From Mytilus galloprovincialis (Eukaryota), in contig NC_134847.1 of NCBI RefSeq assembly GCF_965363235.1, forward strand, positions 69,846,935 through 69,910,934: DNA of 64,000 nt, in the 5' to 3' direction. Positions within the stretch are counted from its first letter, which is position 1; the number at the start of each line of letters is the position of its first letter. The notes under the pieces are model-generated. The model worked only from the letters and a program-made list of their open reading frames with translations. It ran no database searches and was not told where the DNA came from. Positions 16,801-59,100 of this stretch are shown here, piece after piece. The position numbers and the translations under genes are program-made.

Positions 16801-16838
16801 AAAGTTAGAGTGCGAAAACTAAAAGTATTCGGACGCTG

Positions 16839-16876
<38 letters not shown>
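16839..16876. repeat. (GACGAC)n microsatellite
   Basis: Twelve consecutive GAC triplets sit within the right-arm insertion. Confidence 0.9.
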
Positions 16877-22990: not shown

Positions 22991-23184
22991 GATACTATTA
23001 ATATAGCAATGACCGTATGATTCGACTTGTAAATTTAATTATATGCCTTATTCTGACTCAAAGCGGAGAGTATAATTGTGAAACGTCGAAGGCATACAAG
23101 CTTTTCTGTATAAAAAATTTCTGACTGGTTTGGTAATTAAATATCGATCAAACAATTTAAATTTTTAATGTGTTTATTCCATAT

Positions 23185-25842: not shown

Positions 25843-25866
25843 TTTTTTTTTTTTTTTTTTTTTTTT
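25843..25866. repeat. T24 homopolymer, present in duplication copy A only (the copy B site at about 56390 reads ggttttcttttaaaggaggagg)
   Basis: It is directly visible. Confidence 0.9.
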
Positions 25867-29312: not shown

Positions 29313-29388
29313 TAATACTACAGGTACGTGAGTGAGAATCTGCAAGAAATCTTGCAAAGACGATACGAATTTTTCGTAGAAATATTTA

Positions 29389-29718
29389 ATGATACCACAA
29401 AGTGCAAACATGTTTATAGTTAAATACGTTTTATTCTTTATAAATGTTTTCAGTCCGGCTCAAACTGAATCAAACATTTTTCGCATTCACCCAGATCGGC
29501 TTGATTCTAAACTGCAAGGATACATTTATTTAACATTTGAGAAAATATCACCGAGGTTGTGCTTTAACAAATGTATACGACGACCTAACTGTCACTCGTA
29601 CAACTATAATAAATCTTTACTGACATGTGAACTAAATAACAAGCCAAAATCTGTATCTTCTGATGATTTCTTTTTTCAGAATGGATATGTGTATGTTGAA
29701 ATTGAACAGTACAGAGGG
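29389..29718 (+). CDS. Exon 1 of secreted PAN/apple-EGF-mucin gene: signal peptide plus PAN/apple-like domain
   Basis: The ORF-track ORF 29389-29739 has alternative Met codons at 29389 and 29410, followed by a hydrophobic N-terminus (FIVKYVLFFINVFSPA|QTE) typical of a signal peptide. A 4-Cys motif follows (LCFNKCIRRPNCHSYNYNKSLLTCEL) that matches the PAN/apple core pattern C-x3-C-x5-C...C-x-L. The ORF track shows the frame running 6 codons past a consensus GTATGT donor placed directly after codon GGG at 29718, so the exon ends in phase 0 and is phase-compatible with exon 2. Confidence 0.6.
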
Positions 29719-30448
29719 GTATGTAAAAAATTCATATAATAAGGAAAATAATATCTTTTTTGACTAACGTTTTCGATTTATTGTATTATTCTGAACGAAA
29801 TATAAGTTTTGAGCATTGTCCGTGATTCGTAAAGACAGAAATATAATTAGAAAAATAATATGTTCTTAACTTATTATCAGCCTTCAATCATATCAATTAT
29901 AACGTAAATAGGTTAATTTTGTGGTGATTGCTGGGTTCGTGTTGTTGCTTTGTCTTCTTTGTTTTCTTTGTTGTGTCTTGTGTACTATTACTTGTCTGTT
30001 TGTCTTTTTCTTTTTCAGCCACGGAGTTGTAATTTTATTTTCGATCTATGAATGTGACTGTCCCTCTGGTATCTTTCGCCACTCTTTTAGAACAAAACAT
30101 CTAAATACCGTGGTGCAGAAATATAGTTTGTCATGTTAAAATAGTAAAATTGATTCATTTGACCTAAAACGATAACATTACACATAGTTATGGTAAAACA
30201 TTTATCAAAATCTTCACCCAAAAAATACTTTACCTACTGCAACATCGTTTCAGATAATTGTAAACAATGCTGTTGAGCAAAGGATATATAAATGACAAAA
30301 ATCAAACATAGATATTCAGCCCCTTTCTACAATTTAGTCAGACGTCAGTCGCTACCCTAATACACCCTATCGTTTCGGGGTAATTAATACGGATAGCGTT
30401 TGACATCTTTAGCCGTACAGATTTATCATTTTTACATAACCTAATTCA

Positions 30449-34403: not shown

Positions 34404-35579
34404 ATAATTAAAGGTAAATGTATCGTTGATTGTCGGAAATATCTGAAATATTTGTAAGATTTCTGTTTTGTGTATGATTAAATAGATATTTTGTTGTAAT
34501 GAAAATTAAAAAGGAGCGGGAAAGTTAGGTGGAATCATTCTTTCCTTGATTTAAATGCATACTAAACAAAAGAGTTAATGTAATTATCTTTTTTAAGAAA
34601 CAATGACTATAAAGGTAAAAGGGTTTTGAAATAAAGACAATACGATTAGTAATTTTAATATTTAATGATAAAGTTTTATCATTGTAATTTAATGATTATA
34701 CATTTTGGCATAGTATTGGCTAACCTATTATGTTCAATAGGAACAAACATTTAATGTATTTGCCAAATCAAACAGAGAATTAAAACAAAGGAGTAGATTC
34801 AATTGGACCCTCTTTTGGCCCCAAAATATAGCAGTTTTACAAAATTGTTAAAATGTAGACTTTTAGTTATTAATTGGATTGTAAATTTCTTCTGCTACAT
34901 AAACATGTGCTGTTTTTGACATTACAATGCACATATATCGGGTATAAACATCATTAAGTCATGCTAAATTACTGAAATCTTAACTTTTTTTGTTTTTTAG
35001 TTAAATTTTAGAAGGTTTTCGTCTTAAATGAAAGTGGCCGCATTTGTGTTCATTCTTAATATTGAAATGTAAGTTGTATTTGATGATAATACATAACATA
35101 TATAAACGTTTGGGATGAACACTGATGCTGCCACTTTCATTTAAGACGAAATCCTTTGATAAAAACTATCAGAAAAGTGACATTTTTGTGCATAGATTTT
35201 TCCTATTTAAGCTTGAATTGTTTGAGCGTTTTTAATGAGTAAATAGGTCGAAATAGTTCACATATACTTATTGAATCAACTGAAATAGATACTTAAGTTT
35301 TAAAAAGTGTACAAAATCTTTCGTCAGATGAACCTGAAATTTGAGGCTAAAACCAGCCCTCATCGGACCTACTCCTTTGATAATTTCATCCATGGAATAT
35401 ACATAAATTGTAATTTCAATCAATCTGAATTCCGAAATGACATGTTGCCTGCAAACGCCGTGTCTGAAATGTGATGAAATTCCAATAACGTTGTGAACGC
35501 CTTTGACACATCTTGATGCAGCATGATGCAACAAAAAAAGTAGTGTGAGGAAATAAACCGAACTCCAATCAAATTCAAA

Positions 35580-35720
35580 TCGGAAAATCCCTTATCAAAT
35601 GGCAAATTAAAAGCGTAAATACTTCAAACGAACGAATGGAAAAAAGCAGTCATATTCATGACTTGGTACATAAATTTTCTTATGTAGAAAATGGTGGATT
35701 AAACCTGATTTTATAACTAG
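35580..35720 (+). repeat. Family 1 dispersed repeat copy (3' portion), in intron 2
   Basis: It contains 'aaatggcaaattaaaagcgtaaatacttcaaacgaacgaatggaaaaaagcagtcatattcatgacttggtacataaattttcttatgtagaaaatggtggattaaacctgattttata'. Confidence 0.65.
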
Positions 35721-35991
35721 CTTTTCCTCCCTTTTGTGTGACCATCGCATAAAATGTCTTTATATTGACAACAATATGTGAACAAAAGCTGTCATTATTT
35801 TGTTAAAATCTTATTTACTATCAAAATGAACAACTATGCCAACAACTAAAAATAACATGGCATCTATAGACAAAGTACATGAGCCAAAATGGAAGACAGG
35901 AATACACAAATTGGTCACAGAACAATAAACAAATGGCGGGATATATGAATACCGAGGCACGCGAAAAAAAAAATCACTGAAAATGTACTAA

Positions 35992-36417: not shown

Positions 36418-39400
36418 AACCAACTTCCACTACAAAATCGGTTAAAACAACAACAAACGACAATACAAACATTCGAAATACTGGCACTTCAGAAGCGCAA
36501 ACAAAAACAATGGCCTCCATTTCTCAGACGATTGGCACAGCCACAAAAAGCACAGAACTTACCTCCATATATATTAATGTTGGCACAACCACTAAGACTG
36601 TTGTTACTACCGCCGAGAAACATTTGACCAAAACCGAATTTGAAACTACCGTATATGACAATCATGGACCAACATCTGACGAAACATCTCACACAGCAGC
36701 AACGAGATTGCTAAAAACCACCGCTAATCAAGTTTCGAATTATACGATCACTAATGATAAACCGAAGTTGACGACAGAAACTGTGACTGGCTCAGAAACC
36801 CGAACAAAAACACCGGTGCACGTCTCTATCACTCATACTATTGGCACTACAACATATGATACGACTATGACAGGCACATCAACTAGTGATGCTACTATCA
36901 CATCCGCAAAAACCATCACACCTACCTCTTTATCGAATACTGTTGGAACTACAACGAACACAGTTGGTACTACCGAAGAACACCCGTTGATTAACACCAA
37001 AGGTACAACTGCTGTCTCTGAGACTCATGGACCATCATCTAACGAAAAAACTCACGCATCAGCAACAATCTTGTTAGAGACAGCCTCGGATCAAAGATCG
37101 ATCTTTCCAATTACTAATAATAAACCGACAGAAATGAAAGACACTAAAACTAGATCAGCAACACCACCATTCATTTCTAACACTCAGACGATTGGCACTG
37201 TAACAGACGTAGCACCTAGTGAAGCTACAGCTGCAAAAACTACAAAGCTAACCTCTATGTCTAAGATTATTACAACTACCGCTGAAATTACATTGACAAA
37301 CCCCGAGAGTACAACTGTCTCCGAGACTCACACAGCAGCATCAAAATTACTGAAGACAACTGCTGGTCAATCTTCGAACTTTCCGACGTCTTATGATAAA
37401 CAGGAGGAAACGACGGACACTATAGCTAGCTCAGTAACGCCAACGAAAACACCAGCATACATGTCTCACACTCAAACGATTGGCTTTACAACAGACGATA
37501 GTACTTTGACAGACGCAATAACTGATGAAGATACGGTCACAGCCGAAGATTCCGTAAAACGCAGTTCTATATCGTATAATGTTGGCACTACCACTCACAC
37601 TGTTGGTACTTCTGCCGAAAAGCCGATAAACACCGAAGGTACACCTGTTGTTGAGAATCATGGGTCAAAATCTGAAGAAACAACTCACACAGCAGCATCA
37701 ACCTTGATAAAGACAACCATTGATCAATATTCAACCTTTCCACATACTAATCTAAAACATAAAGAGATGACAGATACTATATCTAGCTCATCAACGCCAA
37801 CGAAAACACCGGCATCCATGTCTAATACTATGACGATTGGCACTAGAACAGATGACACAATTATGACAGTCGCAACAACTGATGAAGCTTCTGTCACAGC
37901 TGCAAAAATCATTGAAATTACCTCGATATCAAATACTGTTGGCGTTACCACTAGGACTGTTGGTACTACCGGAGAAAACTCGTTGATGAGCATAGAAGGT
38001 CCAACTACTATCTCTGAAACTCACGAATCATCATCTGACAAAACAGATGACACAGCAGCAACAATATTGTTAGGGACAAGCGATGTCGCCTGGGTCTCTC
38101 TGACTACTTCTTATAATCCGAATGAAATGCTAGACACTATGGCCAGCTCAAAACCGACAACTAAAACACCGGCATTAATGTCAAACAGTCAAACCATTAG
38201 CATTAAAACTGATAACATGACTGTGACAGCTACTGACACAACACAAAAAAACATCGAACTTACCTCCATATCTTATACTGTTGGTATTTCCACTAACACT
38301 ATCGGTTCTCAGTTGCCAAAAACCAATGGTACAACTGTCTCTGAGATAGATAGGCCATCATTTCACAAAACCAATAACACAACCTTGCTAGAAACTACTG
38401 CTGATCAAGCTTCGCATTCTCCAAGTACTGATGATCAAACAACGAAAACTTGGGACTCAATAGCGAGCACAGCAAATACAGAGAAAACACCGGCATTCAT
38501 TTCTGACACTGAGGCTATTGGCACTATAACAAATGATACGACTGTGACACACACAACAACTGATGAAGATACTGTCACAACTGCCAATATAACCTCAATA
38601 TCTACTTATATTGCCATTACTAATAAGACTGTTGGCATTATTACAGAAAAACGGTTAACAGACACAAAAGGTACAATTTCTGCCTCCGGGACTATTGGAC
38701 CAACATCTGACGAAACCACTCATACCGCAGTCACATTGCTAGGGACCACCGCTGTTCAATTGACAGTCTCTCCAATTACTAATGATAAACCGACAGAAAC
38801 CATAGCTAGCTTGGAAACGCCAACAAAAAAGTCTACGTCCATATCTGACACTCATACGATCGGCTTAACAACAGATGATACGACGATGACAGACACAACA
38901 ACTAGTGAAGCTACTGTATCAGCCGCAAAAAATATCCAACTTACCTCGATATCTAATACTGCTGGCATAACCACAAGCATCATTGGTACTACCACCGATA
39001 AACATTTGACAAACGCAGATGGAACAACTACTCTTTCTGAGACTTATGAACCAACATATGACGAAACAACTTACACAGCACCAACAACTTTGCTAAAGAC
39101 TACCACTGATACAGCTTCGGTCACTTCGAATACTAATGACAAATTGACAGAAAATACGGAAACCAAAGCTAGATCAGAAACGCCAACAAAAACGTTTACA
39201 CCCATATCTAACACCCAGACGATCAGCTTAACAACAGATGATACTACAATGACAGACACAACATCTAGTGACGCTACTGACACAGTCACAAAAACTATCC
39301 AACTTACCTCGATATCTAATACTGCTGGCATAACCACTAGGACCATTGGTACTATCACCGATAAATATTTGACAAACACAGAAGGTACAACTACTGTTTC

Positions 39401-42400
39401 TAAGACTCACGGACCAAAATCTTTCGAAACAACTTACATGGCAGTAACAACCCTGCTAAATACCACCGCTGGTCAAACTACGAACTCTTCGATTAAGAAT
39501 AATAAACCAATGGAAATGACAGACACTATAGCTAGCTATGCAACTCCAAGGATAACATCGGCATTCAATTCCGACACGCAGACGATTGGCACTACAACAG
39601 ATGATATAACGATGGTCGACACAACAACTAGTGACGCTACTAATACAGCTGCAAAAACTATCAAACTCACCTCAATATCAAATTATGCTGGCACTTTTTC
39701 AAACACTGTTGGGACTACCACAGAAAAACATTTGACCAACACAGAAAGTACAACTACTGTATCGCAAAGTTACAGATCAACATCTGACGAAACCACACAC
39801 ACGACACCTACAATCTTCCTAAAGACAACTGCTGGTCAATCTACGGTCCGTCCAAATACTAACGATAAACCGACGGAAACGACGGAAACCATAGCTAGCG
39901 CAGAAACGCCAACAAAAACGACTACATCTATATCCAACACTCAGACGAACGTCTTTACAACAGATGATATAACGATGGTAGACACAACAACTAGTGACGC
40001 TACAGCTGCAAAAACTATCGAACTTCCCTCTATATCAAATTATGTTGGCACTACCTCAAAAATTGTTGGTACTACGACAGAAAAACATTTGAAAAACACA
40101 GAAGGTACAACAATTTTCTCTCAGCCTCACGGACCAAAATCTTACGATATTACACACACAGCACCTACAATCTTGTTAAAGACCACTGCTGGTCAATCTA
40201 CGGTCTCTCCGAATGATAAACCGACGGAAACGACGGAAACCATACCTAGCTCAGAAACGCCAACAAAAACGAATGAATCCATTTATGACACTCAGACAAT
40301 CGTCTTTACACCAGATGATACTACGATGATAGACACAACAACTAGTGAAGCTACTGTAACAGCTTCAAAAACCATCGAACTTACCTCGATATATAATACT
40401 GCTGGCATAACCCCAAGCACCATTGGTACTACCACCGATAAACATTTGACAAACGCAGATGGAACAATTACTCTTTCTGAGACTCATGGACCAACATCTG
40501 ACAAAACAACTTACACAGCACCAACAACTCTGCTAAAGACTACCACTGATACAGCTTTGGTCACTTCGCTTACTAATGAAAAATTGACAGAAAATATGGA
40601 AACCAAAGCTAGCTCGGAAACGCCAACAAAAACGTCTACACCCATATCTAACACCCAGACGATCGGCTTAACAACAGATGATACTACAATGACAGACACA
40701 ACATCTAGTGACGCTATTGAGACAGTCACAAAAACTATCCAACTTACCTCGATATCTAATACTGCTGGCATAACCACAAACACCATTGGTACTACCACCG
40801 ATAAATATTTGACAATCGCAGATGGAACAATTACTCTTTCTAAGACTCATGGACCAACATCTGACAAAACAACTTACACAGCACCAACAACTCTGCTAAA
40901 GACTACCACTGATACAGCTTTGGTCACTTCGAATTCTAATGACAAATTGACAGAAAATATGGAAATCAAAGCTACCTCGGAAACGCCAACAAAAACGTCT
41001 ACACCCATATCTAACACCCAGACAATCGGCTTAACAACAGATGATACTACAATGACAACCACAACATCTAGTGACGCTACTGACACAGTCATAAAAGTTA
41101 TCCAACTTACCTCGATATCTAATACTGCTGGCATAACCATTAGGACCATTGGTACTATCACCGATAAATATTTGACAAACGCAGATGGAACAATTACTCT
41201 TTCTGAGACTCATGGACCAACATCTGACAAATCAACTTACACAGCACCAACAACTCTGCTAAAGACTACCACTGATACAGCTTTTGTCACTTCAATTACT
41301 AATGACAAATTGACAGAAAATATGGAAATCAAAGCTAGCTCGGAAACGCCAACAAAAACGTCTACACCCATATCTAACACCCAGACGATCGGCTTAACAA
41401 CAGATGATACTACAATGACAGACACAACTTCTAGTGACGCTACTGACACAGTCACAAAAACTATCCAACTTACCTCGATATCTAATACTGCTGGCATAAC
41501 CACTAGGACCATTGGTACTATCACCGATAAATATTTGACAAACACAGAAGGTACAACTACTGTTTCTAAGACTCACGGACCATCATCTGACGAAACAACT
41601 TACATGGCAGTAACAACCCTGCTAAATACCACCGCTGGTCAAACTACGAACTCTTCGATTGATAATAATAAACCAATGGAAATGACAGACACTTTAGCTA
41701 GCTTAGCAACTCCAAGGATAACATCGGCATTCAATTCCGACAGGCAGACGATTGACACTACAAGAGATGATAGAACGATGGTCGACACAACAACTAGTGA
41801 CGCTACTAATACAGCTGCAAAAACTATCCAACTCACCTCAATATCAAATTATACTGGCACTTTTTCAAACACTGTTGGGACTACCACAGAAAAACAATTG
41901 ACCAAAACAGAAGGTACAACCACTGTATCGCAACGTCACAGAGCAACATCTGACGAAACCACACACGCGACACCTACAATCTTCCTAAAGACAACTGCTG
42001 GTCAATCTACGGTCCGTCCAAATATTAATGATAAACCGACGGAAACGACGGAAACCATAGCTAGCGCAAAAACGCCAACAAAAACGGCTACATTTATATC
42101 CAACACTCAGACGAACGTCTTTACAACAGATGATATAACGATGGTAGACACAACAACTAGTGACGCTACAGCTGCAAAAACTATCGAACTTCCCTCTATA
42201 TCAAATTATGCTGGCACTTTTTCAAACACTGTTGGGACTACCACAGAAAAACAATTGACCAAAACAGAAGGTGCAACTACTGTATCGCAACGTCACAGAG
42301 CAACATCTGACGAAACCACACACGCGACACCTACAATCTTCCTAAAGACAACTGCTGGTCAATCTACGGTCCGTCCAAATACTAATGATAAACCGACGGA

Positions 42401-45400
42401 AACCATAGCTAGCGCAGAAACGCCAACAAAAACGTCTACATCTATATCCGACACTCAGACGAACGTCTTTACAACAGATGATATAACGATGGTAGACACA
42501 ACAACTAGTGACGCTACAGCTGCAAAAACTATCGAACTTCCCTCTATATCAAATTATGCTGGCACTTTTTCAAACACTGTTGGTACTACCACAGAAAAAC
42601 AATTGACCAAAACAGAAGGTACAACTACTGTATCGCAACGTCACAGAGCAACATCTGACGAAACCACACACGCGACACCTACAATCTTCCTAAAGACAAC
42701 TGCTGGTCAATCTACGGTCCGTCCAAATACTAATAATAAAACGACGGAAACGACGGAAACCATACCTAGCTCAGAAATGCCAACAAAAACGAATGAATCC
42801 ATTTATGAAACACATACAATCGTCTTTACACCAGATGATACTACGATGATAGACACAACAACTAGTGAAGCTAGTGTAACAACTTCAAAAACCATCGAAC
42901 TTACCTCGATATATAATACTGCTGGCATAACCCTAAGCACCATTGGTACTACCACCGATAAACATTTGACAAACGCAGATGGAACAATTACTCTTTCTGA
43001 GACTCATGGACCAACATCTGACAAAACAACTTACACAGCACCAACAACTCTGCTAAAGACTACCACTGATACAGATTTGGTCACTTCGATTACTAATGAA
43101 AAATTGACAGAAAATATGGAAACCAAAGCTAGCTCGGAAACGCCAACAAAAACGTCTACACCCATATCTAACACCCAGACGATCGGCTTAACAACAGATG
43201 ATACTACAATGACAGACACAACATCTAGTGACGCTACTGACACAGTCACAAAAACTATCCAACTTACCTCGATATCTAATACTGCTTGCATAACCACAAA
43301 CACCATTGGTACTACCACCGATAAACATTTGACAAACGCAGATGGAACAATTACTCTTTCTGAGACTCATGGACCAACATCTGACAAAACAACTTACACA
43401 GCACCAACAACTCTGCTAAAGACTACCACTGATACAGCTTTGGTCACTTCGAATTCTAATGACAAATTGACAGAAAATATGGAAATCAAAGCTACCTCGG
43501 AAACGCCAACAAAAACGTCTACACCCATATCTAACACCCAGACAATCGGCTTAACAACAGATGATACTACAATGACAGCCACAACATCTAGTGACGCTAC
43601 TGACACAGTCATAAAAGCTATCCAACTTACCTCGATATCTAATACTGCTGGCATAACCACTAGGACCATTGGTACTATCACCGATAAATATTTGACAAAC
43701 GCAGATGGAACAATTACTCTTTCTGATACTCATGGACCAACATCTGACAAAACAACTTACACAGCACCAACAACTCTGCTAAAGACTACCACTGGTACAG
43801 CTTTGGTCACTTCGATTACTAATGAAAAATTGACAGAAAATATGGAAACCAAAGCTAGCTCGGAAACGCCAACAAAAACGTCTACATCCATATCTAACAC
43901 CCAGACGATCAGCTTAACAACAGATGATACTACAATGACAGACACAACATCTAGTAACGCTACTGACACAGTCACAAAATCTATCCAACTTACCTCGATA
44001 TCTAATACTGCTGGCATAACCACAAACACCATTGGTACTACCACCGATAAACTTTTGACAAACGCAGATGGAACAATTACTCTTTCTGAGACTCATGGAC
44101 CAACATCTGACAAAACAACTTACACAGCACCAACAACTCTGCTAAAGACTACCACTGATACAGCTTTGGTCACTTCGATTACTAATGACAAATTGACAGA
44201 AAATATGGAAATCAAAGCTACCTCGGAAACGCCAACAAAAACGTCTACACCCATATATAACACCCAGACGATCGGCTTAACAACAGATGATACTACAATG
44301 ACAGACACAACTTCTAGTGACGCTACTGACACAGTCACAAAAACTATCCAACTTACCTCGATATCTAATACTGCTGGCATAACCACTGGGACCATTGGTA
44401 CTATCACCGATAAATATTTGACAAACACAGAAGGTACAACTACTGTTTCTAAGACTCACGGACCATCATCTGACGAAACAACTTACATGGCAGTAACAAC
44501 CCTGCTAAATACCACCGCTGGTCAAACTACGAACTCTTCGATTGATAATAATAAACCAATGGAAATGACAGACACTATAGCTAGCTTAGCAACTCCAAGG
44601 ATAACATCGGCATTCAATTCCAACACGCAGACGATTGGCACTACAACAGATGATATAACGATGGTCGATACAGCAACTAGTGACGCTACTAATACAGCTG
44701 CAAAAACTATCAAATTCAGCTCAATATCAAATTATGCTGGCACTTTTTCAAACACTGTTGGGACTACCACAGAAAAACAATTGACCAAAACAGAAGGTAC
44801 AACTACTGTATCGCAACGTCACGGAGCAACATCTGACGAAACCACACACACGACACCTACAATCTCCCTAAAGACAACTGGTGGTCAATCTACGGTCTCT
44901 CCAAATACTAATGATAAACCGACGGAAACGACGGAAACCATAGCTAGCGCAGAAACGCCAACAAAAACGACTACATCTATATCCGACACTCAGACGAACG
45001 TCTTTACAACAGATGTTATAACGATGGTAGACACAACAACTAGTGACGCTACAGCTGTAAAAACTATCGAACTTACCTCTATATCAAATTATGTTGGCAC
45101 TACCTCAAAAACTGTTGGTACTACGACAGAAAAACCTTTGAAAAACACAGAAGGTACAACAATTGTCTCTCAGCCTCACGGACCAAAATCTTACGAAATT
45201 ACACACACATCACCTACAATCTTGTTAAAGACCACTGTTGGTCAATCTACGGTCTCTCCGAATGATAAACCGACGGAATTGACGGAAACCATACCTAGCT
45301 CAGAAACGCCAACAAAAACGAATGAAGCCATTTATGACACTCAGACAATCGTCTTTACACCAGATGATACTACGATGATAGACACAACAACTAGTGAAGC

Positions 45401-45695
45401 TACTGTAACAGCTGCAAAAACCATCGAACTTACCTCGATATATAATACTGCTGGCATAACCACAAGCACCATTGGTACTACCACCGATAAACATTTGACA
45501 AACACAGATGGAACAACTACTCTTTCTGAGACTCATGGACCAACATACGACGAAACAACTTCGGTCACTTCGATTACTAATGATAAATTGACGGAAAATA
45601 CGGAAGCCATAGCTATCTCGGAAACGCCAACAAAAACGACTACAGCCATATCTAACACTTGTCTTTCAGTTTTTGGTGTTGTGTTTTGTATATGA
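36418..45695 (+). CDS. Exon 3: giant mucin-like Thr/Ser-rich tandem-repeat exon with hydrophobic C-terminal tail
   Basis: A 9.2 kb open frame (ORF track 36510-45695) remains open upstream to a ttttcAG acceptor at 36416-36417. About 3090 codons are dominated by T, S, P, K and D, with a recurring 121-aa unit (TPTKTSTPISNTQTIGLTTDDTTMTDTTSSDATDTVTKTIQLTSISNTAGITTRTIGTITDKYLTNADGTITLSETHGPTSDKTTYTAPTTLLKTTTDTALVTS...). The repeat body has essentially no Cys. The exon terminates ...AISNTCLSVFGVVFCI*. Confidence 0.8.
36800..45650 (+). repeat. Coding tandem repeat array, 363 bp unit (variants 354-369 bp), about 25 copies, with 2.2-2.9 kb higher-order repeats
   Basis: Reverse-strand ORF artefacts recur at exactly 363 nt spacing (40511/40874/41237 and 43031/43394/43757/44120). 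Near-identical blocks of about 240 aa recur three times (starting near aa 940, 1660 and 2620). Units at the edges of the array are more divergent than the central ones. Confidence 0.85.
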
Positions 45696-46726
45696 CTGAC
45701 GTTGTTTATCATCTTAATAACGTGTTATATTATTCTTTTATTTTTCTTTATTAATATTACTTTTACTGTTAAGTCTGTTTTTTAGATATCCTTTTGACGA
45801 AACTTTGTGCTTATGTATCCCATCATACTTTGAACGACAAAATTATTTTATGATGTGACTCTGTACCTATGTTTCTTGTCATACTTTGAATGACAAAATT
45901 ATTTTATTTATCAATATTACTTTAAATTTACTGTTATGTTAACACGAATAATTCAGTCGTTATATTCCGCTTACTACATTACAAGTAGGAGAGATCGATT
46001 ACGGGGAGGGACTGAATTATTCGGGTTACTGTTACGTCTGTTTTTTTGTGATATACATTTGACGTGACTCTGTATTTATGTATCCCGTCATACTTTTAAC
46101 CACACTATTATTCTATTTATTATTATTACTCTTACTGTTAAGTCTGTATTGTTATATCCATTTTACGTGACTGTATTTATGTATCCCGTCATACTTTGAA
46201 CGACAAAATTATTTCATTTCTACCTGTGCGAATTTCATACGCGCAATTTTACACCAGTACTTAAAACCCTCCATCCTTTATGGTTGCATTTTACATAAAT
46301 TAATAAAATCGTATAATATAAGCAAAATGAGGATGTTAAATTTGATGTATGCCTTTTTGTGCTTCTTCGTTACATTTGTTGTTTTTATAGTGATTAATTA
46401 AGATGATAACACAATGTTGACTGCTGTACCCCATTTTTGACATTTTTACCTATTGTGTCTGTTTGTTTTATTCACGCATCGGTGACAATATAATGGAATT
46501 TGATGCGACTGTCATACAAATGAGAGGTTTAGCTAGCTATAAAACCAGTTTCAATACACCATTTTCTACATTTTAAAATGCCTGTACCAAGTCAGGAATA
46601 GGACAGTTCTTTTCCATTCGTTTTTGATACGTTTTGTTATTTGATTTTGCTATGTGATTATGGACTTTCCGAATTGGTTTTCCTCTAAGTTCCGTATTTT
46701 TGTCATTTTACTTTTTACACTCAGAC

Positions 46727-47952: not shown

Positions 47953-49871
47953 CTATTTACAATAAATAAAATTTCTACGTCTTTTAAAAATCAAATGACA
48001 GGTTTTGGCACACACACGTATCATATTTACATCTGAGAATAAAAACACTAACTTTTGATTATCATCTAAAGTATTAAAATTATCATTAAAAGTTTCAGCA
48101 ACATAATATAAATGGTTTCTAAAATCGTCATACAGAGGACATTTTAATAAAACATGCGCTTCATCGTCAATAAAAACGTCACATATATGGCACATTCTAT
48201 TTTCTAAAACAATATTTTCATATCTCCCTGTTTCAATTCTTAGGGGAGCAACACCATATCTAAATTTGGCGAAAGCACTTCTGTGACTGAAGGGTAAAGC
48301 TATTTTACAATATTCCTCCGATTCAAAATTTTCCTTAAACAGTCTGTAAGTTCGTAGCTTATTGCCACCTCTGTCGGATATAGATTTATCTAAATGTAAA
48401 ACACCATGCCAATTATCGACATGTTTTTCGTGTAATTTTGACATAATTTTTTTTATAACATAGTTAGTGTCCATATTTTCAGGACACGATAAATGACTTA
48501 AATTTAGTTTACTATTAGCCCACTTGTGAACTTTTGCATTTAACCGATTTAAGCTCATGTTATTTAATCTACACCACAAACGAATAATACTTTTCCACTG
48601 CTTATCAAAAATAGGTGTTATACCTAAGTCTCCAGTAACTGCAGCATTTGGTGCATATTTTCCTACTCCGAGAAAAAATCTACAAGCCCTAGTATGTATG
48701 GAGTTAATACAAGAATATGTTTTTACACCCCATATACCTGCTCCATATTCTATTATAGGACAAACCAAACTTTCATATAATTTTACAAATACATCGAAAC
48801 AAACACCACCTAAAAGTTTACATTTGGCTATTACCAACCCTAAAGCTCTATTTGCCGAAGATGCAACGGCTTTTGCAGTAACATTATAGTCTAAATGCTC
48901 GTTTAAAACGAGACCAAGATAAGTATAATTACTAGAAAAATTAATAGTATGACCATTACAATTAAAAATTACATCAGATCTAGGTATAGATGGCGGTCTA
49001 AAATGTACAACGTTACTCTTGTTTACATTAATTGTCATACATTGTTTTCACACCATGTAGATAAAGCATTTAACAGAAGTTGAAGCTCTTTTTCATCGTT
49101 TGCTATAATTACAACGTCATCAGCATATAATAAAATACACAGTTTTTCATCACCTATTTCTATTCCGCAGTCAAAGGACTTAAGAAATGTAACTAAATCA
49201 TTAATATACAAGTTGAACAAAATGGGCGACAAGGGACATCCTTGTTTCAAGCCACAGTTAACATCAAACCAGTCTGTGAAATGACCGTTTATTCTTACAG
49301 AACATAAAACATTTGTATAAATTGACTTAATAGCAGAACAAAAAGGCTGTGCAACACCCATGTTATTCAATTTATACCACAAAATATCCCTTTGTATAGT
49401 GTCGTAAGCCTTTTTAAAATCTATAAAGGCGCAAAATGTTGATTTACGAAGTTTTTTTCTTACATCTATCAAATTAGTAAGACTAGATAATTGGTCAATT
49501 GTACTACTTTGTTGCCGGAAACCATTCTGCTCGTCAGCCAGTACATTGTTATCATCTACCCATTGAGCTAATCTATCGCTCAGTATATTACAATACAATT
49601 TGTAAGACACGGCTGCCAGGGCGATCCCTCTATAACAAAGGGGGTCTCTCGGGTCCGACATGTTAGATTTAGGAATAGGATTTATAATAATTCTATTCCA
49701 TAAATCTGGAACATTACCATATCTAAAACAAATATCTTTGGTATCACCTCGGAGGTTCTTACGAGTTACCGGTCCTTGGTATGGTGACATGAAATTTTGA
49801 ACGAGAAAAAAATGTGAAAAAGGTGAAAAACATCTAATTTTGAGATATGTAAAAGATTGAAAATAGTCCAA
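47953..49871 (-). mobile_element. 5'-truncated non-LTR (LINE) retrotransposon, CR1/L2-like RT, minus strand
   Basis: ORF 49035-49871 carries RT domains (FRQQSSTIDQL, CAFIDFKKAYDTI, GLKQGCPLSPILFNLYINDL, LLYADDVVII). The abutting ORF 47953-49038 carries the RT thumb and a C-terminal Cys/His motif (CHICDVFIDDEAHVLLKCPLY). The two ORFs overlap by 4 nt, indicating a frameshift. No endonuclease domain lies upstream of the RT, which indicates 5' truncation. Confidence 0.75.
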
Positions 49872-51214
49872 AAGTTATATATAGAATTTATAAGAATCCA
49901 CAAATAGTAAATTCCACTACGCGATTGAATGATTTTGACGTTTATGGTTCAACGTATTTTGTAATTCATAATAGAAATATATCATAATGACATAAACTGG
50001 AACAATATCATACTGACGGGATCTTTTGAAGTACAGAGTCACGTTATAAGAACCAAAGAAATACAAAAAGTCGCATATACAAAGCACGACACCAAAAATT
50101 GAAAGACAATACAAACACATTGACGAGATGTACAAGTACCGAGCCACGCCAAACGGATATCACATAAAACCATTCAACAGTAAAAGTAATATTAATAATA
50201 GAACAAAGACAAATGAAAGAACTATAAAACACGTTGTTAAGATGATAAACAACATCAGTACGCAGAATCTATACATCAAGACCATCGTGTATTATTTGTG
50301 AAGTTGATACGGAATATTTATCAACAAGGTCTTGGTACCTTCCGATGAACTTTTTTAGAAAAAGGACGAGACGTTCTTTGACATACCCCTGGTTCATTAA
50401 CTTTCTACTCAGACACTGATGACGTTTTACAAAGTCTGAGTAGGAGCTGCAAGCTCTTTAATATCGAATAAGTTGGGAAATATATATCACATATGCAGGT
50501 AAAGTTGGTATATTGCTACTAAGGTGGGGGAAATTTATAATTTCAAAATTAAAATCGTCTCGTTTGTAATAGATTCTGGTACTGAGATGACTGTTTAAGT
50601 CAAATTCGAGATATAAGTCTAAAAATGAGGCGGAGGAAGCCGTGTCTGTTGTTTCTTTAATATCTAGTTCTGGGGGATATATTTATGGAACCTAATCAGA
50701 AAAGTTCGGATTGTTTATGGAAAGAACATCATCAATATATCTGAAAGTGAAATTAAATAATCTGGCAATTTTACACAAATACCAAATTGAAATCTACGCT
50801 GGCTATGGTTTGAAACCGTATTTGAAATTAAGTAGGGCGTCTATATAAAGTTAGGTCTTAATGGATTTATACAGAATCAAATGTGAATTATCAACGAACA
50901 TACTACATATTAGTCTGACTCGGAGGGCTCCCTGTGTTGTAATTTTGAAACTATTTCATAAAGCATTAACCATCAAGCATAATACATATTAGTCTAACTA
51001 GAAGGGCTTTCTGTGTTGTAATTTTGATACTATTAATATAGCAATGACCATATGATCGACTTGTAAATTTAATTGTATGCCTTATTCTGACTCAAAGCGG
51101 AGAGTATAATTGTGAAACGTCGAAGGCATACAAGCTATTCTGTTTAAAAAATGTCTAACTGGTTTGGTATTTAAATATCGATCAAACAATTTAAATTTTT
51201 AATGTGTTTATTCC

Positions 51215-52527
51215 ATATATATATATATATGTGTGTAACACTCCCAAACGTGTCCTTCCCCCCAAACGTGTCCGATTCCCCCATACGTGTCTATTCTCAC
51301 CAAACGTGTCCATAATATTCAATATTCCCCAAACGTGTCCGATTTCAGAACCCCAAACGTGCCCGATACTATTGTTATTCGCCCAAACGTGTCCACTTTT
51401 AAACGCCAGAACGTCTCGTGTCTTTTGCGCTAATACATGTCCTAAACGCGACATCAATAACGTTCACGGCAGTTCTATGATGGGGACACAGGTGATGAAG
51501 TGGTAATTTATTAACATTAACTTGTTCAATGCCGGTTGTTAATGATTATCATTACTGAAATTTAACATATGCATTAACTTTTGACTTAATTTGCTTATTG
51601 TCCAGTTGCAAGTATTTCATACTCATTTAAAGCGAACATACAAATAATTCTAGTATAGTTGAATTAATCGTTTACTATGTAAATTCTTTTATACTAATAA
51701 GCTCCGATGATGCCTTTTATATTAATCAGAATATTCCACGGTGGGCTCTCAGTCGAATTGACCTCCCATCTTTTTTTAACAGTTCTAATTTTAATAAATT
51801 TTAGGTTACGAGCGTCACTAAAGACACACGAACAAGAGAAATAACGTCCAGTGCCAAATATTTCATTCGTTTTTTGAACGATATCATATTAACGATATAT
51901 ACTGTAAATAGGTTATATTATCAAACCGGGAATTTAAAATTGGGCATTAATTTTTACGGTTATTTGGGATGACCACTAGTTTGGATTTTAATCTAAAGAA
52001 AAATAAATGCGAGTAAAGACCGATTTGTTTATGACTTCAGTAAGAAACTACTTCAATGTCTGTTATGTAATATAGAGGCCGTTTCAAATAAAAGTTGTAG
52101 AAATTAAAAAAAAAATTTGCCTTCCAAAATACAAAGTATGGCACATTATAACGAGTGAAATGCTACAAACATTTTAATGGGCATAGAAAAAGAATTTAAG
52201 TAATTTATTTTGATCTTTTAATGAAATAGTAAAAGATCATAAAATGAGTATACAATGATAATAATAAAAAAAAAACACAAATAACCTACGTTTTTATAAT
52301 ATGGACACGAATGATAGTTTCAGTAAAATAAAAAAAAGCTTGGTATCGACACGTTTGGGGGATTGGACACGACTGGGGGTTTATTAAAAAATGGACACGT
52401 TTGAGCCTTTATACAAATGACACGCTTTGGCGCCCTTTGACAACTAGACATGTCTTTGCAGTTCAGTGACGTCGATGTGGACACGTTTGGGGGAATCAGA
52501 CACGTTTGGGGGGTTACATATATACGA
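51215..52527. mobile_element. Second copy of the CCAAACGTGTCC-array element (within segmental duplication B)
   Basis: It has the same termini and 12-mer arrays as 23185-24500. Confidence 0.6.
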
Positions 52528-54400
52528 TACTTTTAGAGTTTTTGGACATTATTAATGGACAGACATTTACTTGTGAAATATTAAAAAATGAATGATATTC
52601 AAAATTTAAACACTAACATGTCAAGAGAGGCAACTCAATTCTTTTTTTATATAAATTGTATAAGTTATAAACAGAAAAGATCTACTTAATCTCAGACACC
52701 AATAGCTGCGGATATGAACAAAACTAAATCCGTTTTCCACTATGTTCACAGGGTCTGGGTAGGGCAGGGTTGATAACATACTAAGATAATTGTTTAGAGA
52801 TGTGTGGCTGGGTAAAAATCACCCCCTTCGTATCTTGAAGTGTTGCGAAAGATGCAAAGACTATTTACAAATCTAACTCACAACTTGTGTTGACAGAGGG
52901 GACAAACAGTACTTGAAGGTCGTTGTCTAGGTGTGGTGGTTTCAAATCGAAGATAATATTATTGTGAAGAGTAAAATTATAAAGGTTCTTCTATTCAGTA
53001 ATTGTGAGCATCAAAGAATCTCACAGGGATGAAGCATTCACTAAAAAAAAGATAATTTTGCCTTGAATTCTATCTTTATCTATAAGTTATAAGCTTAACT
53101 ACATTTATAAGACAACTTTAGGTTACATGCCAAGAAAATAATACAGACAACTTAAAATAATCAATTTAGAAAAGACAAATTGTTCTGCATTCCTGATCTG
53201 ATATTACACAGTAGTGATACAAATTACTGGGTTAGTATATATAGAAAAAAGTAAAATTATAAAAATACTGAAATCCGAGGAAAATTCAAAGCATAGAAAA
53301 AGAATTTAAGTAATTTATTTAATTTATTTTGATCTTTTAATGAAATAGTAAAAGATCGTAAAATGAGTATACAATGATAATAATAAAAAAAAACCACAAA
53401 TAACCTACGTTTTTATAATATGAACACGAATGATAGTTCAAGTAAAATAAAAAAAAAGCTTGGTATGGACACGTTTGGGGGATTGGACACGACTGGGGGT
53501 TTATTAAAAAATGGACACGTTTGAGCCTTTATACAAATGACACGCTTTGGCGCCCTTTGACAACTAGACATGTCTTTGCAGTTCAGTGACGTCGATGTGG
53601 ACACGTTTGGGGGAATCAGACACGTTTGGGGGGTTACATATATACGATACTTTTAGAGTTTTTGGACATTATTAATGGACAGACATTTACTTGTGAAATA
53701 TTAAAAAATGAATGATATTCAAAATTTAAACACTAACATGTCAAGAGAGGCAACTCAATTCTTTTTTTATATAAATTGTATAAGTTATAAACAGAAAAGA
53801 TCTACTTAATCTCAGACACCAATAGCTGCGGATATGAACAAAACTAAATCCGTTTTCCACTATGTTCACAGGGTCTGGGTAGGGCAGGGTTGATAACATA
53901 CTAAGATAATTGTTTAGAGATGTGTGGCTGGGTAAAAATCACCCCCTTCGTATCTTGAAGTGTTGCGAAAGATGCAAAGACTATTTACAAATCTAACACA
54001 CAACTTGTGTTGACAGAGGGGACAAACAGTACTTGAAGGTCGTTGTCTAGGTGTGGTGGTTTCAAATCGAAGATAATATTATTGTGAAGAGTAAAATTAT
54101 AAAGGTTCTTCTATTCAGTAATTGTGAGCATCAAAGAATCTCACAGGGATGAAGCATTCACTAAAAAAAGATAATTTTGCCTTGAATTCTATCTTTATCT
54201 ATAAGTTATAAGCTTAACTACATTTATAAGAGAACTTTAGGTTACATGCCAAGAAAATAATACAGACAACTTAAAATAATCTATTTAGAAAAGACAAATT
54301 GTTCTGCATTCCTGATCTGATATTACAAAGTTGTGATACAAATTACTGGGTTAGTATATATAGAAAAAAGTAAAATTATAAAAATACTGAAATCCGAGGA
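52183..54400 (+). repeat. Local tandem duplication, 2 copies of about 1.1 kb (52183-53290 and 53291-54400), present only in copy B
   Basis: The sequence from 'atagaaaaagaatttaagtaattta' to 'ggaaaattcaaagc' occurs twice head-to-tail, so the right GGACACGTTTGG array appears at both 52340-52520 and 53460-53650. Copy A has one unit. Confidence 0.8.
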
Positions 54401-54682
54401 AAATTCAAAGCGGAAAGTCCCTAATCAAATGGCAAAATCAAAAGCTCAAACACATCAAACGAATGGACAACTTCCTAACTTTGTTCAGGCATTTTCTTAG
54501 GTAGAAAATGTGGGATTAAACCTTGTTTTATAGCTTGCTAAATGCCTCACTTAACGCGCGTAGACTTTGGGCTTTTTGTTTCGTTAGCCATTCACATTGA
54601 CAAATATCATTAAAAAATAATAATTCATTTATACATTTCTAGGCTATCACATGAACAATCTGTGAAATCTTAACAAGCCTTA

Positions 54683-56096
54683 AGCCCCAGTCCCACTAGA
54701 CCACGATCGCACCACGCTCACCGCGATCTAAAATAAATTTAGATCGTGGTGAGGTCGCGGTATGAGCTGCATGAAAATGTAAATTTTCTTTGCTTTCACG
54801 ATGCTACTACGTCCTCTCTACGCTTCTACAAAGATCCCGCTACGATTATACCACGTTCTCACCGCGCTTATTCTGCGACCTCACTACGCTTATCAAGATC
54901 TTTCTACGCTCTTCACGTTCTCATTACGACCATACCACGAGTTATCCGATTGCAACACGATCTTACTGCGATTATAACACGTTCTTTCCACGATTATACT
55001 ACGTTCATAGCGCGATCTTACTACGTTCTCAGCAATAACGTCAACATCGTGTTCCATATCAATACAGTTCAATTCCATCTATTTCTGATTAAATCGTAGA
55101 TTCTCGGAAACATACAGTCATGCCACCAAAATCTACAAAACACCTGGGCATGGTGGTAGGAGTTGATGTAGAGGCAGAGGGAGCAAAGTAACGAATCCTG
55201 ATCTAGCAGAGATGTCGGACCGACCAATACAACCTAAATTACAACCTATTACTGGTCCATAAAGCTCAATGACGATATTTTAGTGAACGATAGCAGAGAT
55301 GATATATATAGGAAGATGTGGTATGAGTGCCAATGAGACAACTCTCCATCCAAGAAACAATTTATAAAAGTAAACCATTATAGGCCAAGGTTCGGCCTTC
55401 AACACGGAGCCTTGGCTCATAATCAATCAACACGTTATAAAGGACCCAACATATTACTAGTGTTAAACCATTTCAACGGGAAAACCAACGGTCTAATTTA
55501 TATAAAAACGAGAAGCATGGTTGAGCAGTTAGAGCAAATGGATAATTACATTCAAAGAAACAAAATCTAGGAGCTTTTTTATATATTTTATGTGAAAATG
55601 ACAATGAGAATGATGATCGTAGTGTGAACGTAGTCAGGTCGTAAGAAGAGCGTGATGAGGACAGCAAGGGCGTGCTAGAATCGTACAATGGTCGTGAACA
55701 GCGTGGTATAGTCGTAGTGGAAGCGTAGTTGGGTCGCAGTGAGAACGAGATGGTCGTAGTGAGGTCGTGATAACGTCGCTGTGAAATCGTAGCGCAGTAT
55801 CTCCGAATAGAATCATACTTTCGCTACGCTCTCGATACGATTGTACAGCGACCTTTGCGATCTTACTACGATCTTAGTGCGCTCTCACTACGCTTCTACT
55901 ACGACCTGATTTCGCCACGACCGCACCACGATTGTTTTGAACATGTTCAAAGTTGGCCACGCTCTTCACGATCTTGAAGACCTCACCACGACCGTGATAC
56001 GACCTTACTGCGATCTACACGATCGCACTACGATCATCAAAACTTGCATTTTTTTCACAGATTGTAGTGCGATTGTGGCCTAGTGGGACTGGGGTA
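54683..56096. mobile_element. 1.4 kb non-autonomous TIR element with TTA target-site duplication (PIF/Harbinger-like), whose interior is made of inverted CTACG/CGTAG short-repeat arrays
   Basis: It has roughly 30 bp imperfect TIRs (left AGCCCCAGTCCCACTAGACCACGATCGCAC, right GTGCGATTGTGGCCTAGTGGGACTGGGGTA). It is flanked by TTA on both sides (54680-82 and 56097-99). The orthologous site in copy A (about 25521-25528, ccTTAggacg) is uninterrupted with a single TTA. The interior 54720-55060 holds arrays of about 20 bp CTACG-containing repeats, and 55620-56060 holds their reverse complement. Confidence 0.75.
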
Positions 56097-58212
56097 TTAG
56101 GACGTGTATTGATTGATCTAAATGAGATATTAAGATTTAAATATCTAACTAACGTCATTCATAGTTTAAACTGATGATACTTATGATTATTAATCATTCA
56201 TATTTCAAATACTATTACTAAATAGAATACTACACTGTAATCCCTTAAGGATATACTTTGAATAAATAAACACATGATTACGGTGACATTATCGATCAAG
56301 ATAACAGGATGATCGGTTGATGATTAAAGAGTGTTTTTCATACGATCGGGGTTTGTGAACCACAATCTGATTTTATTTGCTTCTTTTGGTTTTCTTTTAA
56401 AGGAGGAGGGGTTTAGGAACTGAATAAAGAATATTTTGACCTGATAGATATTTTGCCCCCCCCCCCAAAAAAAACGGGATAACTGAATAATTTGCATCTA
56501 TTATATAGGATAACATTGGTTTTTTTTTTCATCGCAAACCTGTGCAATTTGCTTATTTACTAAATATTTCGTTTAGTTTAAGTTCTTTTTCAAAATCTGT
56601 CAACATTCTTGTACAACTGACCTGTGAGGAAAATACGGATGTGTCATTACTTGAATTTTGGTGTCCTGCTTAGTGCCACGTAAGTTCTACTATTTGCAAT
56701 AGACAAACAAGGAATAGGTCAGTTGATTTTCTTTAAAATTATGCTCAAAGCTCAAACATGACCTCAAACTGCATGACCCAACCCCAAAAATACCAAATAT
56801 CGTATCAATATAAACATCTTTACAATTACACAAATCTTACAAATTTCTGTTTAGATAGAAAATATAATGTAGATTGATATAATAAAACCTTCTATCATTT
56901 ATGGGTAGACTTTACATAGATAAATTCAGCCGTATTTGACGTGAAACTGTACTTATGTGTCCCGTCATACTTTGAACCACACCATTATTTTATTTATTAT
57001 TTTTATTGTAAGTCTGTTTTTTGTTATATCTACTTTACATGAGTCTGCATTTATGTATGCCGTCATACGACAAAATTATTTTTATGTCTACCTGTGCGAA
57101 TTTCAAACGCGCAATTTTACACCAGTAATGAAAACCTTCTTTCATTTATGGGTAGACTTTACATAGATAAATTCAGCCGTATAAGAAAAGCAAAATGAGA
57201 ATGTTAAATTTGATGTATGCCTTTTTGTGCTACTTTGTTACATTTGTTGTTTATGTAGTGATATTAAGATGATAACACAATATTGACTGTTGTACCCCTA
57301 TTTTTGACATTTTTACTCTTTGAGTATGTTTGTTTTGTTCATGCATCGTTGACAATGTAATGGAATTTGATGCGACTGTCATACAAGTGAGAGGTTTAGC
57401 TAGCTATAAAACCAGGTTCAATCCACCATTTTCTACATTAGAAAATGCCTGTACCAAGTCAGGAATATGACAGTTGTTATCCATTCGTTTGATGTGTTTG
57501 GACTTTTGATTTTGCCTTTTGATTTTTGATTTTCCTTTTTGAATTTTCCTCGGAGTTCAGTATTTTTGTGTTTTTACTTTTTAGTTGCTGGTTTTGGTTT
57601 CAGATTTATCTTAATGTTTTGAGTGTATTTGATATTTGTTTGCTATAATATAACCCATGAAACTCATTTTGTATCTAGAAAGTGCCTATACTAAACTATA
57701 ACTCTACATATCATAATAATAATGAGTGCATAAATAGATAACTCTGTAATGGAATCAATATTTTTTGGCATTTAAGTAGGTAGCGGTAAAATGTATTTTT
57801 TTACTGGTCCACTTGGAAACGGGATTTTTTATAAAGATTACAATGGAACATCAAACACGTTCATATCTATATCATTATAACCAATGTTTTGCATTTACAG
57901 TGTGTGTGATGTCGAAATATCAGTGGTATTAATAAATGCCACAAAGTATGAATACGTCCACTACAAAACGATCAACTACATAACAATAGATTTAATTTAT
58001 TTATGCAGTTGGCATTCTTCTAATGTAGTTAATAATATCGTTTTAAAAGTGACAAAAGGCAAAAGTCAAAATCGTACGTTTAACATGTTATAACTTACGT
58101 AATAAGAAAAGAGTAAATAAACTCATCATAGATACCAGGATTAAAATTTTGTATTAACGCCAGACGCGCGTTTCGTCTACAAAAGACTCATCAGTGACTC
58201 TCGAATACAAAA

Positions 58213-59100
58213 AATTGAATGCTTTTTCATATGTTTTCAGTTGGATTTAAATAATGAGAACTGGCACCTTACGCGAGGAGAAATTCTCACTATAGTAGAG
58301 GGGTCTGTAGAAGCTGAACTTAGGGAACGGTCACCCCTCCCCTTACCACATAGCTTCAAAACTTTGACCCCCAAACAAAAATCCCTATCGGTTGCCGTCA
58401 GTGAAATTTGTTTTTATTGGACCAGTGGAATAACCTGTCTCTTGACTGTCAGATTTAACAGGTGAAGGCAAGGACTCCCAGGTCGGAATGCTTTTTCACA
58501 TGTTTTCAGTTGGATTTAAATAATGAGAACTGGAACCTTACGCGAGGAGAAATTCTCACTATAGTAGAGGGGTCTGTTGAAGCTAAACTTAGGGAACGGT
58601 CATTGTTTATCAGCTGAGGGGTATATATGTTCAAATTTATTGAACCCCCCCCCCCCCCCCCAAAAAAAAAACATTATGAACCACATAATGACCCCCCTCC
58701 CCTTACCACATAGCTTCAAAACTTTGACCCCCAAACAAAAATCCCTATCGATTGCCGTCAGTGAAATTTGTTTTTAGTCGACCAGTGGAATAACCTGTCT
58801 CTTGACTGTCAGATTTAACAGGTGAAGGCAAGGACTCCCAGGTCGGAATGCTTTTTCATATGTTTTCAGTCGGATTCAATAATGAGAACTGGAACCTTAC
58901 GCGAGGAGAAATTCTCACTAAGTAGAGGGGTATCTAGAAGCTAAACCTAGGGAACGGTCTTTGTTTATCAGCTGAAGGGTATGTTCAAAATTTTCACCAC
59001 ATAATGACCCCCTACTCTTAACACATAGCTTCAAAACTTTGACCCCAAACAAAAATCCCTATCGATTGTAAAAAGAAATTCTCACTATAGTAGGACATTT
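58213..59100. repeat. Tandem repeat of 270-360 bp units, about 3 copies
   Basis: Units begin 'ggaatgctttttcatatgttttcagttggatttaaataatgagaactgg' at about 58215, 58487 and 58848. The second unit carries a C17A10 homopolymer insert. ORFs 58241-58465 and 58577-58777 are artefacts of this repeat. Confidence 0.8.

Follow-up and report, generated by a model that had tools for sequence, protein, structure and literature searches.

What kind of sequence occupies only one of two colinear paralogous segments on contig NC_134847.1 of the bivalve Mytilus galloprovincialis (RefSeq assembly GCF_965363235.1), and did it arrive before or after the segments were duplicated? The window analysed here is a stretch of 64,000 nucleotides (positions 69,846,935 to 69,910,934 of the forward strand) of AT-rich animal DNA with 33% GC, in which a 1,414-bp segment interrupts one paralogue, copy B, and is missing from the other, copy A. 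We consider it quite probable that this segment is a copy of a non-autonomous, multi-copy class II transposon with the insertion signature of the PIF/Harbinger superfamily, and most likely that it inserted into copy B after the duplication. The family adds a non-autonomous member, new or at any rate uncatalogued here, to a known transposon kind, and its unusual aspects are limited to dense phased 11-bp arrays and to an element-derived first exon in Mytilus gene models.

The two paralogues provide the exact limits of the insertion. Self-comparison of the window aligned 21352-26972 (A) with 49854-58219 (B) as colinear blocks of 89-97% BLAST identity, a local segmental duplication with a substitution divergence of 2.5-4.6%, and this alignment is interrupted precisely at the insert, with the flanks aligning on either side. 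Copy A carries a single TTA in its empty site (AACAAGCC-TTA-GGACGT), whereas in copy B the insert (54683-56096), which starts AGCCCCAGTCCCACTAG and finishes CTAGTGGGACTGGGGTA, has a TTA on both sides (AACAAGCC-TTA-AGCCCCAGTCCCACTAG...CTAGTGGGACTGGGGTA-TTA-GGACGT). Because the base preceding the right TTA is A and not C, the target site duplication (TSD) is 3 bp at the maximum. An earlier note made from the letters of this stretch had described a terminal inverted repeat (TIR) element with precisely these coordinates, a 3-bp TTA TSD and an empty site preserved in the paralogue, and all of this was borne out by the comparison.

Near its ends the element carries a perfect 15-nt inverted repeat, CCCCAGTCCCACTAG, at element positions 3-17, which continues imperfectly to ~31 nt (26 of 31 positions). 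No TIR copies other than the element's own two were found in the 64-kb window. Its termini, AG-CCCCAGTCCCACTAG on the left and CTAGTGGGACTGGGG-TA on the right, were found at 12 further unrelated sites on public marine-metagenome contigs, giving 13 independent insertions with different flanks, as expected of a mobile sequence. The sources were marine metagenome ORXM01 contigs and four ENA assemblies. An exact TIR scan of public metagenome contigs yielded two true copies from ORXM01 (L001, right end; L005, left end) with ~94-95% BLAST identity over the matched parts, while three other matches (L002-L004) were rejected as GC-rich chance hits; the same scan returned nothing from viral contigs and, from genome contigs, one chance match in a cyanobacterial metagenome-assembled genome, on the same contig as L002. 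Protein queries supplied the remainder: a stop-free open reading frame (ORF) through the array matched ten predicted 'proteins' on ENA contigs, a second set of copies was found with a central ORF remnant as the query, and the contigs of these matches gave L006-L014 and L016-L018, from the four ENA assemblies.

The flanks of these copies reveal a consistent target. Left flank trinucleotides are TTA in eight cases, TAA in two and TGA in one, with one rearranged end (L017), and right flanks are TTA in four cases and TAA, TTG and CTA in one each. TTA (12) or TAA (3), together written TWA, is therefore present in 15 of 19 flanks, compared with a window frequency of 6% (P = 1.5e-15). Perfect TTA/TTA pairs border the window copy and L016, and the TSD pairs of the diverged, complete copies L006, L009 and L010 match at two of three bases. 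Two outcomes had been set in advance as speaking against such an element, namely TIRs that fail to recur and other copies with a different TSD or none, and neither occurred. The idea that TTA strictly follows the orientation of the element was considered and dropped because TAA borders L006, L007 and L017; an extra terminal A common to L006 and L007 is unlikely since these are not sister copies. L005 (1802-1921, reverse) has a TTA in another member's 11-bp array as its insertion site, which corresponds to window ~54890-54892, and is a case of self-nesting within the family.

Complete copies measure 1,463 bp (L016), 1,414 bp (window), 1,231 bp (L006), 931 bp (L009) and 487 bp (L010); their ends are common, including the terminal AG...TA, and their internal deletions differ. 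This size series with common ends is typical of deletion derivatives, and no member encodes a protein. In line with the earlier note, the interior holds no intact ORF, the longest (117 aa) being a stop-free read through the repeat array, and none of the 14 fetched family loci has coding capacity. Among window ORFs of 75 aa or more, leaving aside the repeat gene described below, Pfam matches were limited to RVT_1 and a PAN domain, with no transposase, and six window ORFs looked up by exact match were absent from the protein collection. The divergent interiors of L001 and L005 were considered as parts of a longer autonomous element and were rejected, as they have no coding capacity. L005 departs from the window copy within a nested high-copy repeat, and its interior is a probable assembly chimera or unrelated continuation.

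The central part of the element retains a decayed N-terminal ORF remnant of ~65 aa with no recognisable domain. Queries with this remnant, in a word-based search and in an exhaustive profile search covering 1.84 billion representatives, returned 33 hits, none of which is a transposase and all of which are short ORFs of other copies, except for two Mytilus trossulus RefSeq models. XP_063448299.1 (P0161) is a Roc-COR 'roco6' GTPase and XP_063420793.1 (P0170) is a Ty3/gypsy pol fragment; in both, the match to the remnant is confined to the first ~35 residues, and these element-derived starts read MSDRPVQPDTQPIAGPS… and MLDRPIQPESQHIAGQ…, respectively. The models are not transposases, and represent either annotation chimeras or first-exon donation (exonisation) driven by a transposable element (TE).

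The interior is organised differently from what had been proposed. The earlier note saw two opposed arrays of ~20-bp repeats, whereas the repeat unit is 11 bp (22 bp being a double unit) with a consensus of ~AYCTYACYACG and a CpG at the unit end, and ~70 diverged units form three long arrays (L, R1 and R2) and two short ones, which together make up about half of the element (Table 1). CpG pairs at exactly 11-bp spacing number 42, against 5.5 +/- 2.1 in dinucleotide-preserving shuffles, and Tandem Repeats Finder reports periods of 11, 20 and 22 in the element. Comparable 11-bp arrays were found nowhere else in the window, and the CpG observed/expected ratio is 1.35 in the element versus 0.85 in the window. 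Read from either end, the order is identical, namely TIR, forward units, loop, reverse units and forward units, the reverse block being short at the left end but long at the right end. The left subterminal module, which is separated from array L by a spacer, contains a palindrome with a 16-bp stem (54717-54753, 94% complementary) and is kept in eight of nine aligned copies, being deleted in L008. The earlier suggestion that the whole element folds as one long hairpin was not supported; the predicted single-strand DNA fold consists of a terminal stem, a small hairpin at each TIR (z from -4.3 to -5.5 on the left and -4.4 on the right) and a strong local R1/R2 hairpin (z = -9.6).

Table 1. Coordinates of the element, its parts and its target sites in the 64-kb window
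Feature	Position	Strand	Remarks
Empty target TTA, copy A	25524-25526		Sequence on both sides aligns to copy B
Left TSD, TTA	54680-54682		Left-end TTA also in L005, L009, L010, L011, L012, L014 and L016
Left terminus and TIR, AG + CCCCAGTCCCACTAG	54683-54699	+	Kept in 10 other left ends
Left subterminal module: 2-3 forward units, AT-rich loop, 2 reverse units	54700-54765	+	
Array L, ~24 forward units	54785-55045	+	Consensus ~AYCTYACYACG
Non-periodic central core, 560 bp	55046-55605	+	14 CpG without periodicity; aligned to other copies
Decayed N-terminal ORF remnant, family consensus MPPKSTRTRGRGGRVDVEAEGALIVTNPDQAEMSDRPIQPKLQPIAGPSSSNDDILVNDSRDDTDV	55120-55300	+	Stops in the window copy; seen across copies
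Nested ~210-bp insertion with dispersed 135-bp repeat core (55307-55441)	~55301-55511	+	
Array R1, ~17 reverse units	55606-55800	-	Inverted partner of array L; pairs with R2 too
Array R2, ~23 forward units	55812-56045	+	Long hairpin with R1
Right subterminal hairpin: last R2 units, AT-rich loop, 1-2 reverse units	56018-56077	+	89% complementary
Right terminus and TIR, CTAGTGGGACTGGGG + TA	56080-56096	-	Kept in L001, L006 and L016; partly in L009, L010 and L017
Right TSD, TTA	56097-56099		

Comparison among copies provides a relative age for this architecture. Left arms are 80-99% alike between copies, and those compared with the window copy range from 99% over the first 380 bp (L005) down to 82% (L008); the arms of L006, L009 and L010 that were compared have 82-92% identity to it. 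Array differences between copies are mostly indels of ~11 or ~22 bp, close to one or two repeat units in length. Even copies with no more than 80-85% identity (L006, L008 and L016) have the three-array layout, which is therefore ancestral to the family, and because the units within one copy are 53% alike (42% without the fixed CG), the arrays are old and not products of recent slippage. Left-arm CpG retention between copies (0.90-0.91) is close to that of other positions (0.81-0.94), so CpG is not decaying faster in the left arm. In the subterminal hairpin, for which the data are few, the changes seen in L009 are not compensatory. The nested ~210-bp insertion is missing from L006 and L008, and the best explanation is that it was gained by a young subfamily to which the window copy belongs. 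The ~135-bp core of this nested repeat (…GTGCCAATGAGACAACTCTCCATCCAAG…GGCCTTCAACACGGAGCCTTGGCTCA…) also occurs in the window at 18537-18649 and, on the reverse strand, at 20078-20211, thus in three contexts in all, and a string search of the literature for it returned irrelevant primer matches only. In L011, a duplicated segment of ~25 bp comes after a piece of the nested repeat.

A 3-bp TSD specific for TWA together with a TIR of ~15 bp is the recognised signature of PIF/Harbinger elements (PMC2836001, PMC2213677, PMC9710019). The TIR is typically ~15 bp (PMC9710019), the TSD is TTA for mPing, and transposition calls for two proteins (PMC2836001). The 3-bp TSD, the TWA target, the short TIR and multiple copies at unrelated loci are all found in the present family. 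Its TIR matches the Ping/mPing TIR GGCCAGTCACAATGG, a sequence checked against primers in PMC2836001, at 10 of 15 positions, and the variant in L011, CCCCAGTCACAATAG, matches at 12 of 15, with CCAGTC.CA.T.G being common to the window family and GGCCAGTCACAATGG. Rice mPing, a Tourist-like element mobilised by Ping/Pong, is among the closest parallels in kind, as it is likewise a noncoding deletion derivative with a ~15-bp TIR and a 3-bp TTA/TAA TSD (PMC2836001), and the clean empty site in copy A is compatible with the precise excision of such elements. The differences are that typical members here (1.2-1.46 kb) are three times longer than mPing (430 bp), that about half of the element consists of phased 11-bp arrays that mPing does not have, that the outer bases AG/TA are asymmetric here, and that the host is an animal, a bivalve.

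How such an element might move can be outlined from what is known of this superfamily, in which movement depends on two element-encoded proteins, one a DDE transposase and the other Myb/SANT/MADF-like. An autonomous relative encoding a DDE_Tnp_4-type transposase and a Myb/SANT/MADF-like DNA-binding protein would mobilise the element in trans; the transposase would make a 3-nt staggered cut at TWA, and its repair would produce the TSD. The ~70 units, with a YACG core once per helical turn in opposed arrays, and the palindromic unit pair by each TIR would be iterated binding sites for the partner protein, such that one site per helical turn would load the partner on one face of the DNA and the opposite orientations would favour synapsis of the ends. 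The central core may be a leftover of the parent element, either a promoter or a first exon (MPPKST.../MSDRPIQPKL...), from which the coding region was deleted. The putative binding function of the 11-bp units is modelled on zebrafish Harbinger3_DR, an animal PIF/Harbinger element with a short repeated subterminal motif of 9 bp that is bound by its Myb-like protein (PMC9710019). Iterated motifs in both orientations also occur in the long imperfect inverted arms of Galileo (Drosophila, P superfamily), where they have been demonstrated to serve as multiple binding sites of the transposase (THAP; PMC3688188). Many short motifs, direct and inverted, similarly make up the subterminal repeats of En/Spm (CACTA). 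Galileo and CACTA differ from the present family in terminal sequences and in TSD length or specificity (7 bp in Galileo; 3 bp without TWA preference in CACTA), and the analogy is architectural only. Harbinger3_DR itself has few known sites per end, in contrast to the ~70 units in alternating long arrays here.

Several observations weigh against the assignment and the role suggested for the arrays. Neither a DDE_Tnp_4 transposase nor a Myb/SANT/MADF gene, the autonomous partner that the earlier note proposed to look for, was found in the window, in the 14 family loci or in the protein searches with the ORF remnant; membership in PIF/Harbinger is drawn from the TSD and TIR only; the outermost two bases (AG vs TA) are unpaired and lie outside the perfect TIR; the CCAGTC motif lies at a distance of 4 nt from the end here, as against 2 nt in mPing, so the likeness of the TIRs is a resemblance and not an aligned homology; three flanks, all in old copies, are not TWA (TGA, TTG and CTA), each one change off; the ends of L017 are rearranged; the unit-sized indels between copies resemble those of plain minisatellites; and the YACG/CG core shows no excess conservation between copies (0.90-0.91 vs 0.81-0.94 at other positions) and thus gives no direct indication that the proposed binding sites are under selection. 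The description 'Harbinger-like' in the earlier note is upheld for the TWA 3-bp TSD and the ~15-bp TIR, which make membership probable. It is quite unlikely, in our judgement, that the element comes from another cut-and-paste superfamily with a 3-bp TSD (Zator, CACTA/CMC or Academ) and merely resembles Harbinger. The missing transposase, the terminal AG/TA, unlike the GG start of Ping/mPing, the string CACTAG inside the TIR and the dense subterminal repeats in two orientations, which are best known from CACTA/En-Spm, would all suit such an origin; set against them are an element start that is not CACTA, a TIR that matches Ping/mPing at 10-12 of 15 positions, and the TWA target in 15 of 19 flanks, which is characteristic of PIF/Harbinger and is not known as a feature of Zator, CACTA/CMC or Academ. 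CACTA/En-Spm (CMC) in the strict sense was ruled out because the termini read AGCCCC... and TACCCC..., CACTAG being only internal (TIR positions 12-17). Also ruled out were piggyBac, as the empty site CCTTAGG has no TTAA, the right flank reads ATTAGG and the TSD is 3 bp and not the 4-bp TTAA, and Foldback or long-TIR elements (FB, Galileo; 7-9-bp TSD), as the TSD is 3 bp and there is no whole-element foldback. A stronger competitor, although still a doubtful one, is that the arrays of this PIF/Harbinger-like element are functionless internal minisatellites, as in a tandem-repeat miniature inverted-repeat transposable element (MITE), and not protein-binding sites. The unit-sized indels and the unexceptional conservation of the motif core would fit this, and tandem-repeat MITEs are documented in bivalves, such as DTC84 of Donax trunculus (PMC3879986). 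These DTC84-type elements are also non-autonomous with internal tandem repeats, but by their description they are set apart by a central block of longer, satellite-like monomers, whereas the repeats here are 11 bp, subterminal, mirror-arranged and diverged. Recent slippage, moreover, would not leave units that are ~53% alike and have only a phased YACG core in common, and the layout is mirror-symmetric, is kept in copies 80-85% identical, and places a palindromic unit pair directly at both TIRs, where class II elements hold transposase or cofactor sites (PMC9710019 for Harbinger3_DR; PMC3688188 for Galileo).

The timing of the insertion depends on what the A/B pair represents. Bivalve genomes are generally known to be highly heterozygous and prone to uncollapsed haplotigs, and A and B differ mainly by TE-sized indels, as would be expected if two haplotypes had been assembled in series and the presence or absence of the element were an allelic polymorphism. 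We regard such an artefact as unlikely, since the window has no N runs, the copies are ~23 kb apart with an unrelated spacer that includes a 9-kb repeat ORF and a LINE (long interspersed nuclear element), and 2.5-4.6% substitutions with several large indels and a 1.1-kb tandem duplication would be high for alleles. With a true duplication, the empty site alone does not distinguish a never-inserted from an excised state, because PIF/Harbinger excision is usually precise and takes the element and one TSD copy with it (PMC2836001); an insertion older than the duplication, followed by such an excision from copy A, would leave exactly the clean site that is seen there, and the A/B difference would then date nothing. 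Divergence makes this course of events improbable. Between the window copy and L005 there are 1.6% substitutions over 620 bp, whereas the A/B flanks beside the insertion differ by 4.1-4.2%, and an insert that pre-dated the duplication should show, against any other copy, a divergence no smaller than about half that between A and B, with the decay of the other copy added to it. The insertion therefore looks younger than the duplication, on the assumptions of equal substitution rates and of L005 coming from the same species. That it post-dates the duplication, as the earlier note claimed, is thus probable but, given the excision alternative, not unambiguous.

These findings leave the current understanding of transposons unchanged, and their significance is more practical. 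Bivalve class II elements are poorly curated, and a cleanly delimited DNA-transposon family from a bivalve, with exact ends, target site and size variants, is therefore useful for repeat annotation. The insertion can serve as a dated marker within a local segmental duplication, and the phased 11-bp arrays constitute a candidate cofactor-site array for studying substrate recognition by the two-protein PIF/Harbinger machinery. The element-derived N-termini in Mytilus models are a warning of TE-driven chimeric annotation, or possibly point to real exonisation. More far-reaching readings have little probability in our view; they would include a dense cofactor-loading platform in which a filament or cruciform-assisted synapsis replaces long TIRs, a transposase lineage new to TWA targets, and a family that is perhaps a mobile donor of promoters or first exons (MSDRPIQPKL...).

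Paralogues A and B diverged through several structural events besides the insertion of this element. Copy B has a second insertion of ~688 bp (56892-57579, against the copy A junction 26337/26338), in which no obvious TIR was seen and which belongs to another dispersed repeat family with related pieces at 46057-46717, 20889-21136, 25200-25397, 35571-35787 and 54365-54552. A ~300-bp repeat insertion at 22132-22430, related to 1190-1317 and 8776-8866, is present in copy A only, and a 1.1-kb tandem duplication in copy B (52190-53292 and 53308-54411, 98.5% identical) is single in A.

The remainder of the window contains other repeats and possible genes. The repeat gene mentioned above is a single forward-strand ORF of 3,061 aa (36510-45695, with repeats continuing to ~47300) composed of Ser/Thr-rich tandem repeats of ~363 bp (121 aa) that are 70-95% alike, and its appearance is that of a mucin-type gene or exon. 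A LINE ORF2 split in two (361 and 278 aa; RVT_1, E = 1.5e-34) lies on the reverse strand at 47953-49871, directly upstream of copy B; its best named relatives are Mytilus edulis proteins with 56-74% identity, no match exceeding 78%. These matches and those in Mytilus trossulus would by themselves make a bivalve host most likely, possibly a mytilid that the protein collection represents poorly. Four co-oriented forward-strand ORFs of 135, 306, 254 and 200 aa at 30440-33210 have retroelement-like motifs such as IGIPMGTNCAPLFADLFLY and no Pfam match at E <= 0.01 in a concatenated scan; they may represent a divergent retroelement. A 740-bp inverted repeat (12008-12746 vs 19021-19750, 92% identical) encloses 13000-16840 and flanks ~6 kb of sequence that holds oppositely oriented tandem arrays with units of ~160 bp and ~140 bp; the whole is possibly a large repeat structure of foldback-like or composite type. 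At ~29380-29736 on the forward strand, an ORF with a PAN/Apple domain (PF00024, E = 6.9e-5) is possibly an exon of a host gene.

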